The notes beneath the pieces are model-generated. The model made no database searches. It worked only from the letters and a program-made list of their open reading frames with translations, and was not told where the DNA came from. A DNA stretch of 64,000 nucleotides, taken from Candidatus Microgenomatus sp. (GTDB lineage: Bacteria > Patescibacteriota > Microgenomatia > UBA8517). The stretch's first letter is position 1, and each line of letters begins with the position of its first letter. The stretch is from positions 65,197 through 129,196 of the forward strand of contig DYGT01000001.1 in assembly GCA_020724555.1 (NCBI GenBank). The letters are read 5' to 3'. This document shows, piece after piece, positions 55,632 to 58,148 of the stretch. The position numbers and the translations under genes were made by a program.

Positions 55632-58148
55632 ATGCCCGAAGAAAATCAAGATACAAATACCACACCCATGAACCCGGAAATAAACACTGGCCGCACGGAA
55701 AGCAGGCAACCTGCTTATATGACATTGGAACACGACCTTGAGAAACGCATAGACAGGCTTGGTTCTGAGATGAGAGCGGTTGCCCAAAATTTAATTGAAT
55801 CACGAGATAGAAATAATGGGGAAATCAAATCTGTAGTATGGGCAGACGCTATGCTTGAGGTTTACTATTTAAACAATGAAGATGTAGATGACAATATTTT
55901 TGCCAGGGATGTAATTTTAAAATATTGTGCGGACAGGAGATGGCGTTTAGGGCAGGATCAGCATCTAAGTGATGTGGAAAAAGCAGAAGAATTCAAAATT
56001 ATTGAAAAATATGAAGCAAAGGCTGAAGAGTTTAACGAAAAAGTTACACCATCACCTGATGCTCTCAGACCGCCTGATCAAAGGATGCCTACACTACAAC
56101 CCGATACACTGGTTCAATCGCCGGCAAAGGTCGATGTGGGTGATCAAAATAGACCAGCGGATGCGGAGGAAAACCAGCAAGCCATCGGAAACTGGTTGTT
56201 TTTAGGAACCGGCTTGGATTTTGAAAGTTTACCTTCTGAAATACAAAAAGAACTCGGTAAATATGTGAAAATTGTTTCAGGTACCCCCTCTGAGCGGGCA
56301 ATAATAGATAGATTATTTGATTATGTATGGGATTTGTCTTCTGATCAGAGGTTAAGCGAAGAACAAAGAAATGAAATGATAGGTGTGCTTAACAATGTCG
56401 CTCAGGTTCAAGAGAGTATATTGCAAAAAAGAACTGATAGTAATTCTGTATCTGTATTAGAAAGAATAGCGCAGAGCTCGGAAGAGGCTGCTAAAACACA
56501 AAGAGAGGCGTTGGATTTGGCTAGCACAACCTATCGACAATTTGTTGAAAATCAAGCTAATCATGTGATCATGTTTCCGCCGAAATGGATAGAAAATCCT
56601 CCTCATTGGTATATTGAGTTGAGTGAAGAGGAAAGGTCAATGGTTCGCGCGGAAATACACATAAATTTTATTGCTAGTCGAAAGGATGCAGAAGGCAGTT
56701 TAGATGCGTATTTGAAACCTGGATTTATTGAAGGAGAACAGGATATTAAAGTACAAATTGAATCAAAAGGTTTGGGATATGCATGGATGAATAAAGCTGG
56801 CTATAGAATTGCATTGGTTACATTAATGAATGAAATATTTGAACTTTCAGAGCCAGATACGTCCGTACCAGATAGAGTCGTAGCAATAGAAATTGACGAT
56901 GACGGTAGGGAGAATTATAAAGTATATGTTAACAACCAACATAGACATAGCCATCTGAGATTAAAAGAAAAGTATGCAGGATCCAATTTGATATCTGGAC
57001 AGACAGAATTGATGAATAAATTAATTGATTCCTTGACAGATTATTTTGATAACAACCCATATTTGCTTTCACAATATAAACTTACCAATTCGTCAAGATT
57101 AGCTGCTGAAGCAGCGACAATTTTCGCTTGGAATACTATATTTATGTCGGCAGCTGTGGACTCAGGCGATAGAGGAGGTAGGCAAAGAACCCTTGCAGGC
57201 CCACACATATCAACCGATTCTGTAAGGTCAATGTTTATGCCTTTAGATAAAGCAATGTTTAAATTAGACAAGGAAAGCCCTCAGGATGTTGAGGAGAAGT
57301 GGGGCGGACCATTAGGGGATTGGTTTGCTGATCGTTCAATAGCACATGGACGAGCTTTTAAAGCTAAAGTGGAGGAAGGAAATTTTCACTTTTTTCCTGA
57401 AAGAATGTTTTATAGTTGGATGGACTACTTGGTTTTAGAAGACAAAACCACTATTAGCGATCGTGAACAACATATCGTTCACACTTCGTGGGGGCAAGCT
57501 ATATTGCGCACAAGCAATGTGGATTTAGGTAATGGGTTAATTGATGTCGCAGATCCAGAGTTGCTACGTCCAGATCAAGAATCAACTGTCTATACTGTTC
57601 AAGGAAGACAGTGGAAAAGAAGCTTCCGCGATGGTGGATCGAATGGAGATTTGTGGTGGCGTTATTCAGCACGAGCTGGTGCAGTTAGAAAAATATATGA
57701 ACTTCTTACCGAGGACGAACCTAAAAGCGATGCGGGTGATTTTGCTACTGCATTTAGCGCTATTGTATCTACAGAACCCTGGTTACGACATATTTATTAT
57801 GATTTAGATTTTTTGACAGCAGCGGTGTCAAAGCTAGCACTAGAAAGAGGAAAAGTGTTTGATAAAAACGCACATGGATACTTGCTGGGGACAGATGAAC
57901 TTGTATTGAATTTAAATGATGCTGTTTATGATAATGCGGTTACGGAAGTGTTAACCTTACTTTTACCTAGGTTGTATAAAGAACCAAGAGAAAGAAGGGT
58001 AGCTAAAAAGTATATCTTGGGTAAACTTCACGCACAAGATGTCCATACTTGGAGCGGGACTATAAGAAATACTTTAGGTGGGATAGCAGCCGGTAGACAG
58101 GAAATTCGAAGGAGAGCCTCACAAGAAATTACTAGACGCTCTACCTGA
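55632..58148 (+). CDS. Large acidic hypothetical protein (838 aa) with no recognisable domain, divergently transcribed inside the T4SS-like cluster
   Basis: Long uninterrupted ORF with no TM or signal peptide. It converges on, and overlaps, the VirB6-like gene. Confidence 0.6.
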   Translation: MPEENQDTNTTPMNPEINTGRTESRQPAYMTLEHDLEKRIDRLGSEMRAVAQNLIESRDRNNGEIKSVVWADAMLEVYYLNNEDVDDNIFARDVILKYCADRRWRLGQDQHLSDVEKAEEFKIIEKYEAKAEEFNEKVTPSPDALRPPDQRMPTLQPDTLVQSPAKVDVGDQNRPADAEENQQAIGNWLFLGTGLDFESLPSEIQKELGKYVKIVSGTPSERAIIDRLFDYVWDLSSDQRLSEEQRNEMIGVLNNVAQVQESILQKRTDSNSVSVLERIAQSSEEAAKTQREALDLASTTYRQFVENQANHVIMFPPKWIENPPHWYIELSEEERSMVRAEIHINFIASRKDAEGSLDAYLKPGFIEGEQDIKVQIESKGLGYAWMNKAGYRIALVTLMNEIFELSEPDTSVPDRVVAIEIDDDGRENYKVYVNNQHRHSHLRLKEKYAGSNLISGQTELMNKLIDSLTDYFDNNPYLLSQYKLTNSSRLAAEAATIFAWNTIFMSAAVDSGDRGGRQRTLAGPHISTDSVRSMFMPLDKAMFKLDKESPQDVEEKWGGPLGDWFADRSIAHGRAFKAKVEEGNFHFFPERMFYSWMDYLVLEDKTTISDREQHIVHTSWGQAILRTSNVDLGNGLIDVADPELLRPDQESTVYTVQGRQWKRSFRDGGSNGDLWWRYSARAGAVRKIYELLTEDEPKSDAGDFATAFSAIVSTEPWLRHIYYDLDFLTAAVSKLALERGKVFDKNAHGYLLGTDELVLNLNDAVYDNAVTEVLTLLLPRLYKEPRERRVAKKYILGKLHAQDVHTWSGTIRNTLGGIAAGRQEIRRRASQEITRRST

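Follow-up and report, generated by a model that had tools for sequence, protein, structure and literature searches.

Background

The type IV secretion systems (T4SSs) of the Patescibacteria have been described as MPF-FATA-like machines (MPF, mating-pair formation), encoded beside dnaA with pilin arrays and TrsD and without a relaxase (PMC12102498). In S. epibionticum the T4SS is essential for epibiotic growth (PMC10633639) and its cargo was left open (PMC10633639, PMC12857230); the relaxase-free systems of this phylum are thought to export proteins or to serve another role (PMC10633639, PMC12102498). VirB6 homologues are reported as 'scarce' in Microgenomatia (PMC12102498). The present work is devoted to a cluster of this kind in a 64,000-nucleotide stretch of DNA from Candidatus Microgenomatus sp. 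(contig DYGT01000001.1), hereafter the window, and more particularly to a gene for a protein of 838 residues that interrupts the cluster in the opposite orientation. This gene is referred to below as the slot gene or, for the copy in the window, the target.

To judge from its genes, the cluster is the chromosomal, oriC-adjacent, monoderm-type T4SS of a Woesebacteria-like member of the Patescibacteria. It shares with the cluster of Quinonero-Coronel et al. 2025 and Wang et al. 2023 a VirB4 (CD1110/FATA), TrsD, PrgI/VirB3, a VirB2-like array, the adjacency to dnaA-dnaN and the lack of a relaxase within the cluster. Unlike what is presented in those studies, a slot gene is found here, and this gene and its VirB6-like partner of 561 residues seem to have gone undescribed so far as parts of the Microgenomatia-type cluster.

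Results and Discussion

Thirteen loci were sampled, comprising the window, seven loci reached through the protein family of the target (L001, L005, L006, L007, L008, L011 and L017) and five reached through the polytopic VirB6-like partner (L012-L016). Both flanks of the slot could be followed in eleven of them, namely the window, L001, L005, L007 (partial flanks) and L011-L017. Scans of genome collections with the family alignments yielded no confirmed locus, or just two known contigs, and a metagenome scan added L017. The metagenome-assembled genomes that carry L001 and L005 (CAZSLA010000004.1 and CAYRCU010000006.1) are entitled 'uncultured Gammaproteobacteria bacterium' at the NCBI, which is probably a mislabel; this name was rejected because gene content and named homologues point to Woesebacteria/Patescibacteria.

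In all eleven loci the genes follow one another in the same order: pilins, a large secreted protein, the VirB6-like gene, the slot gene on the opposite strand, prgI, trsD and virB4. The slot is each time occupied by one gene, whose product of 590-1151 residues has neither a Pfam match nor a transmembrane (TM) segment. In L006 and L008, too, the slot gene converges with a VirB6-like gene; the linkage is tightest with this gene and persists without a nearby VirB4 (L008). Ten VirB6-like partners share 30-79% mutual identity, mostly over their entire lengths. The slot proteins compared, likewise ten, have 590-896 residues, an isoelectric point (pI) of 5.1-7.7 and no TM segment. Size and solubility are kept among slot products, which are mostly acidic and mostly basic-tailed.

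The content of the slot is far less constant. The slot proteins of the window, L001, L005, L006 and L008 belong to one family, to which that of L013 could be added as a remote member by hhalign only (94.8% probability, E 5e-8, 287 columns). Those of L012, L014, L015 and L016 match neither the family nor one another, with the exception of a module of about 100 residues shared by L012. Between the window and L005 the identities amount to 75% for VirB4, 63% for TrsD, 46% for PrgI, 51% for the VirB6-like protein, 41% for the large secreted protein of 1253 residues and 31% for the slot protein. Between the window and L012 the corresponding values are 80%, 65%, 52%, 53% and 37%, and the slot protein gives no BLAST match. 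On these comparisons the slot gene is the fastest-changing gene of the cluster, its content either diverging or being replaced. In its VirB6-like protein L012 (53% identity) stands nearer to the window than does L006 (37%), yet a slot protein of the family is found in L006 and not in L012. Family membership does not track the similarity of the machinery, which speaks for replacement or recombination rather than for drift alone.

Additional small genes lie between the slot gene and prgI in two loci. A gene for a Cys-rich protein of 138 residues is found in L013 (13513-13929, minus strand), and genes for 218 and 110 residues accompany a PycTM-domain gene in L014 (14191-15995). Insertions can therefore be accommodated at this point of the cluster.

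The target was initially annotated as an acidic protein of 838 residues, devoid of TM segments and signal peptide, and all of these features were retrieved, together with an ATG start: the pI is 5.09, with 136 Asp and Glu against 102 Lys and Arg and a single Cys, and the highest Kyte-Doolittle mean over 19 residues reaches 1.22. Its divergent placement inside a T4SS-like cluster holds as well, both neighbours being T4SS genes on the opposite strand. The NCBI annotation begins at M30 and gives a product of 809 residues; M1 is the likelier start, because the peptide MPE[ED]xxDT..PMTP, N-terminal to M30, is kept in the relatives P0002, P0004 and P0005. In comparison with the closest relative, L011, the ratio of nonsynonymous to synonymous substitutions (dN/dS) is 0.29 overall, 0.11 in the core defined below and 0.66 in the N-terminal 270 residues. 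The target is a genuine protein, with a core constrained by purifying selection, as follows from the low dN/dS of this region, and with a relaxed N-terminus.

The alignment of window positions 54559-59640 with L011 displays a mosaic of identities. Blocks at 95-100% (55744-58443 and 59041-59640) alternate with blocks at 67-80% (54559-55153, 55603-55743 and 58444-59040). Within the slot gene the first 35 codons or so are 75% identical and the remainder of the gene 95-100%. The synonymous divergence of the adjacent genes differs about 13-fold, with 0.10 for the slot gene against 1.3 for prgI. This pattern points to recombination between strains, a chimeric metagenome contig being a possible explanation as well.

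Only three relatives were retrieved by a word-indexed search with the target, and a query with the family alignment returned the same three proteins. An exhaustive HMMER scan of 1.84 billion cluster representatives gave 73 relatives at E<=1e-3, of which 44 at E<=1e-10. The initial description of the target as an ORFan was therefore abandoned: on these searches it belongs to a rare, unannotated family and is not a singleton. The core hidden Markov model (HMM), seeded with the target, fits 72 of the 75 proteins collected with E 1e-50 or better. This core of 550-560 residues is preceded by an acidic N-terminal extension that varies from 0 to 460 residues in length among the members, with a pI of 4.3-6 (the median pI of the entire proteins is 5.67). 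A polytopic region or TM fusion is present in none of the 75 members, and neither signal peptide nor TM segment was found across the family. Neither the target alone nor the family profile gave anything significant against Pfam, NCBIfam, PHROGs or the PDB sequences. Pfam recognises none of 58 relatives; its SpuA_C model (PF18033) reaches 18.9 bits on the target, under the cut-off of 26.3, and is matched by only two of these 58 members. No Walker A motif ([AG]xxxxGK[ST]) or AAA/P-loop Pfam match occurs in the target, which is not one of the T4SS ATPases (VirB4, VirD4, VirB11).

A helical module of about 100 residues precedes the core. P0002 and the slot protein of L012, which are not otherwise related, share it at 44% identity, and it matches more weakly in P0005, P0013, P0014, P0035 and P0054. 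The corresponding HMM detects it in the window, L001, L005, L006 and L012 and does not find it in L008 or L013-L016, for which reason a universal N-terminal delivery module was rejected.

Four residues are invariant in the family (W326, G390, G562 and G749) and thirteen are nearly so (P389, F403, N501, S511, R532, P537, K544, G559, P589, Y678, Y766, R780 and R822); the target displays the core positions W326, PG390, N501, S511, R532, GG..G562, P589, Y678, Y766 and R780. The family has no conserved His or Cys, and none of its His positions reaches 70%. The HRHSH stretch, which the initial annotation had compared with relaxase motif III and judged not to fit, corresponds to residues 437-441 in a low-confidence, poorly conserved hairpin; even the closest clade retains no more than R438, H441 and L442, and the stretch is not conserved beyond this clade, in agreement with that judgment.

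The structure prediction and profile comparisons that had been proposed as a check were run, and gave no fold match in the PDB and no significant family match. AlphaFold, supplied with the family alignment, modelled the full chain with a mean predicted local distance difference test (pLDDT) of 78.4 and a predicted template modelling score (pTM) of 0.67, the N-terminal 270 residues or so being of low confidence and residues 1-32, 60-67 and 150-178 falling under a pLDDT of 50. Modelled alone, the core is a single compact alpha/beta unit (pLDDT 89.7, pTM 0.90). The model has no structural relative in the PDB and does not resemble a nuclease, recombinase or relaxase fold, so that the core, confidently predicted, is a candidate new fold. 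The target would be classed as a putative T4SS-associated cargo or accessory protein of a new family and fold.

Among the possible functions, a T4SS-dedicated substrate that would be translocated and act on the host bacterium is tentatively preferred, with less than even confidence, because the hypervariability, the replacement, the basic tail and the lack of a Sec signal fit this reading best. The Sec route is excluded by the lack of signal peptide and TM segment in the family. T4SS effectors typically bear a C-terminal signal in which VirD4 recognises a small number of positively charged residues (PMC11098119), and the target carries such a cluster of positive charge, with a net +9 over its last 58 residues. 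Over the last 40 residues the family has a median charge of +5, and 87% of the members are at +3 or above; the other 43 proteins of the window have a median of 0, with 14% at +3 or above (4% of the acidic ones). R822 is conserved in 91% of the family members. The slot proteins missed by the family HMM have tails of +4 to +6 in four of five cases, that of L015 being at -2. A VirD4-type coupling protein (T4CP), as looked for with T4SS substrates, is encoded in the same genome about 51 kb from the cluster.

The route of such a substrate can be briefly outlined as follows. The slot protein would be synthesised in the cytoplasm from its own promoter, independently of both machinery operons. On the cytoplasmic side of the T4SS its basic C-terminal tail or helix would be bound by the VirD4-like T4CP or else by VirB4/TrsD. 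The VirB6-like/VirB3/VirB4 channel and the pilus would then deliver it onto or into the host bacterium, where the core of about 560 residues would hit a host target; adaptation to this target would account for the hypervariability and the cassette-like replacement.

Known substrates offer a partial precedent. The target resembles VirB/VirD4 substrates (VirE2 and VirF of Agrobacterium, the Beps of Bartonella, ByeA) in being soluble, without Sec signal, encoded near the machinery and basic at the C-terminus, and in the presence of a T4CP (PMC11098119). Those systems are diderm and target eukaryotes, whereas the present one is monoderm, MPF-FATA-like and equipped with pilins; the target, a candidate for translocation, has neither a BID or other known signal domain nor any sequence or fold similarity to these proteins. 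With polymorphic effector loci (the T6SS vgrG-linked type, T6SS standing for type VI secretion system, and the X-Tfe of Xanthomonas/Stenotrophomonas) it has in common a fixed position beside conserved machinery, a payload that diversifies or is replaced, and the N-proximal pre-core module found in otherwise unrelated slot proteins. Unlike in X-Tfe and polymorphic toxins, there is no immunity gene, XVIPCD-like domain or toxin domain and the slot always holds one inverted gene. Membership in the X-Tfe and polymorphic toxins was rejected, as no domain matches and both neighbours are machinery genes.

The initial annotation had listed a secreted substrate or effector among its candidates. The fixed hypervariable slot, the basic tail and the T4CP in the genome speak in its favour, and the target stands as a candidate whose export is predicted from sequence. 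Several observations weigh against this reading. A lone gene that keeps its orientation and varies little in size recalls an orthologous component of the machine rather than a typical effector island. No immunity-like gene accompanies the target, both neighbours being machinery genes with no small gene between, so that it does not belong with the classical antibacterial toxins. The T4CP of S. epibionticum is reported non-essential although the T4SS is essential (PMC12102498), and the T4SS cluster of that species has no equivalent inverted slot gene. The fold comparison yields no functional hint. A basic C-terminal helix may also serve in binding to membranes or nucleic acids, and the difference in tail charge between the family and the window proteins (Mann-Whitney p=8e-15) is computed over related, hence not independent, members.

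The main rival is an accessory protein of the cytoplasm, a subunit or adaptor of the inner-membrane complex docking on VirB6-like/VirB3/VirB4 as a platform, gate or assembly factor, which is possible though rather doubtful. The protein would then be the counterpart of the hydrophilic domains of 'extended VirB6' proteins, its fast evolution resulting from lineage specificity and tolerance of change. The strict one-gene slot, with position, orientation and size kept in all eleven loci, argues for such a role, as does the tie to the VirB6-like gene. This partner is short (561 residues) when compared to the S. epibionticum proteins of 998 and 1088 residues with their C-terminal helical domains, and the literature assigns no function to the extended hydrophilic domains (PMC12857230). 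Like the extended domains of the Rickettsiales paralogues and of SEML1_0011 and SEML1_0013 of S. epibionticum, the target is large, hydrophilic, mostly helical and tied to a VirB6 polytopic domain; unlike these, with which it was compared by description, it is a separate gene on the strand opposite to a short VirB6-like gene. The core is a compact, constrained domain, and the remote homology of the L013 slot protein to this core suggests deep orthology with fast drift.

Replacement beside a conserved partner is a difficulty for a subunit. It is observed in L012, and again between L014 and L016, whose VirB6-like proteins are 46-49% identical and whose slot proteins display no similarity; a specific protein-protein interface is hard to reconcile with such exchanges. 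Indirect tests for a domain split off from an extended VirB6 were negative: no fused, TM-bearing form exists among the 75 family members, the fold is not ARM-repeat-like, and the inverted orientation speaks against a simple gene fission from VirB6. Membership of the target itself in VirB6/TrbL, extended VirB6 included, was rejected, since it has no TM segment where five or more are required.

Cassette-like replacement and mosaic identity would also be displayed by an unrelated passenger (defence, anti-defence or accessory) residing in a recombination-prone gap between T4SS operons. Accessory genes do occur near the slot, such as PycTM in L014 and AbiEii in L013, and no family match links the target to T4SS biology. 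Such a passenger is nevertheless improbable: in each of the eleven loci the slot contains exactly one large gene, of constant orientation and size class, unrelated slot proteins have the basic tail in common, and there is no PHROGs match (PADLOC was outside the search).

The region upstream of the target bears on the third alternative, a regulator of T4SS expression or assembly. The start of the PrgI-like gene was mechanically called at a TTG (55557), and its conserved start is the ATG at 55467 (MATQDHIFEQH...); the divergent intergenic region is therefore about 163 bp long and not 74 bp. The target promoter described in the initial annotation is indeed present there, with its -35 box overlapping a palindrome. 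It is the best sigma-70-like site of the region (score 10/12), with an extended -10 box TGtTATAAT whose TG lies at 55603-55604. With 20 nt between the end of the -10 box and the ATG, the leader is short, and the transcription start is predicted at about 55618. The extended box, in the form TGnTATAAT, is conserved upstream of the target in the alignment of the window, L011, L001 and L005, and AAATGnTATAAT and the start context CTGCC(n)ATG are invariant in all four aligned regions. An intergenic block of about 50 nt is better conserved than the neighbouring coding DNA and probably serves the divergent prgI-trsD-virB4 operon as promoter or control region. No oriT-like inverted repeat was seen in the aligned upstream regions of the target and its relatives. 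Shine-Dalgarno sequences precede 5 of 43 genes in the window; the missing one of the target is thus not special, the whole genome being poor in such sites. Several TATAAT boxes in the window stand as close as 8-20 nt to a start codon, a spacing suggestive of frequent short-leader or leaderless mRNAs in this genome.

The palindrome, which had been put forward as a candidate operator defining a regulon, did not withstand these comparisons. GCGACGTCGC occurs once in the window where 0.42 copies are expected, at least one match being present in 35 of 100 shuffles, and the window contains 101 perfect 10-bp palindromes (73 +/- 8 in shuffles), eight of them GC-rich. The site reads GCGACATCGC, broken, in the 94%-identical relative and GCCCCTGGGC in L001 (69% relative), and the palindrome is absent at the same site of the upstream alignment in L005 (31-36% relative). 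The regulon idea was rejected on these grounds.

A regulatory role, either of the protein or by antisense through convergent transcription into the virB6-pilin operon, with GCGACGTCGC as operator, could draw on the separate promoter and on the arrangement of the 3' ends. Those of the target and of the VirB6-like gene overlap by 8 bp (58141-58148) with no terminator-like site between, so that the convergent transcripts would overlap; across relatives the ends are -8 to +45 bp apart. This role, which the initial annotation had also considered, is very improbable: neither the target nor its relatives contain a helix-turn-helix or other DNA-binding domain (Pfam, NCBIfam), the palindrome is unconserved and at chance level, a hypervariable protein of 838 residues is unlikely in such a position, and the purifying selection on the core indicates that the protein itself matters, not just its transcription.

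That the target is an unconventional relaxase or DNA-processing protein, the 'missing' relaxase of Patescibacteria T4SSs and likewise an initial suggestion, is hardly credible. In its favour, most Patescibacteria clusters lack a relaxase, 'very different relaxases' having been left open (PMC12102498), the core has near-invariant Y678 and Y766 with several near-invariant Arg and Lys, and the basic tail could bind nucleic acid. Against it, HRHSH is unconserved, no relaxase, Rep_trans or recombinase profile or corresponding fold matches, replacement by unrelated sequences in sister lineages (L012, L014-L016) is not expected of a relaxase, and membership in the HUH relaxases (MOB-F/P/Q) was rejected for want of the His triad and of profile and fold matches.

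The features of the window are collected in Table 1. The cluster directly follows a chromosomal origin region with rnpA, yidC, jag, dnaA (46948-48327) and dnaN (48530-49669). The true start of VirB4 is probably downstream of the listed TTG. In L005 the VirB4 gene (4316-8005, minus strand; 1229 residues) contains an intein with Intein_splicing and LAGLIDADG_3 homing endonuclease domains. The polytopic partner has no Pfam TrbL/VirB6 match; its homologues form at least 1214 clusters, named Candidatus Woesebacteria or Patescibacteria, and one UniRef name is 'Type IV secretion system protein'. The large secreted protein is conserved in all contexts (26-74% identity), and its C-terminus (…AIWIQESGASNYN…) resembles by eye the 'ES' motif of lytic transglycosylases; it could be a VirB1-like wall hydrolase of this T4SS. 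The pilin arrays of the relatives count 7-9 genes.

At the other end of the window the T4CP gene adjoins a tyrosine integrase gene (946-1809, plus strand) and tRNA genes, and the region 946-4397 could be the remnant of an integrated element. One of these tRNA genes codes for a tRNA-Ile with a UAU ('tat') anticodon (1917-1990, minus strand), and two tRNA-Met(cat) genes lie nearby (47-121 and 224-294, minus strand). Bacteria do not usually possess a dedicated tRNA-Ile(UAU), and its presence here suggests AUA decoding without TilS.

Table 1. Coordinates and supporting evidence of the features located in the window
Feature	Coordinates	Strand	Evidence or remark
VirD4/TrwB-type coupling protein (T4CP)	2043..4397	-	Pfam TrwB_AAD_bind 28.3 bits (cut-off 20.5), DUF87 26.8 (23.2), TraG-D_C 23.6 (22)
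VirB4 ATPase, CD1110 family	51877..53835	-	NCBIfam conju_CD1110 376.9 bits (cut-off 325); Pfam P-loop_TraG
TrsD/TraC-N-like protein, N-terminal VirB4-like piece	53732..54454	-	NCBIfam TrsD E 1.3e-7, under cut-off; homologues match Pfam TraC-like
PrgI/VirB3-like protein with CarboxypepD_reg-like C-terminal domain	54451..55467	-	Pfam PrgI 28.9 bits (cut-off 27)
Conserved intergenic block (TTAAAGCATACAATATGAAGCTTTTTGTGCAAG...TTTTTCACGG)	55526..55576		About 50 nt; near-identical in window, L011 and L001, partly in L005
Target promoter	55582..55611	+	TTGCGA (55582-55587), 18-nt spacer, TATAAT (55606-55611)
Palindrome GCGACGTCGC	55584..55593		Overlaps the -35 hexamer; not conserved, probably incidental
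Target gene (slot protein)	55632..58148	+	Open reading frame call; 838 residues, ATG start
Variable acidic N-terminal extension	55632..56147	+	Residues 1 to about 172; low-confidence helices, disordered Pro-rich linker 145-178
Pre-core helical module	56148..56420	+	Residues about 173-263; module HMM 26.9 bits
Conserved family core, compact alpha/beta domain	56445..58145	+	Residues about 272-838; family HMM
Basic C-terminal tail	58026..58145	+	Last 40 residues, net +4; modelled as helix
VirB6-like polytopic protein, 561 residues	58141..59826	-	Signal peptide and about 9 TM segments; VirB6-like by position and topology
Secreted cluster protein, 1253 residues, Cys-rich	59857..63618	-	No family match
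VirB2-like pilin, first of an array running past the window	63656..63982	-	Pfam T4SS_pilin 45.6 bits

Conclusions

The T4SS is essential in the only genetically tractable Patescibacteria (PMC10633639), widespread in the phylum and relaxase-free, and the cargo that it transports is an open question (PMC12102498, PMC12857230). The slot provides a concrete candidate for this cargo or for a lineage-specific part of the machine, and the Microgenomatia-type system gains two undescribed components with the slot protein and its divergent VirB6-like partner. The fuller proposal, in which the inverted slot would encode the substrate that the essential Patescibacteria T4SS translocates, and with it a new class of cargo of monoderm T4SSs, of unseen fold, recruited by its basic tail and carrying a hypervariable payload exchanged as a cassette, is possible if rather unlikely as a whole. 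If true, the payload held in the slot would set which host bacterium an epibiont can exploit.

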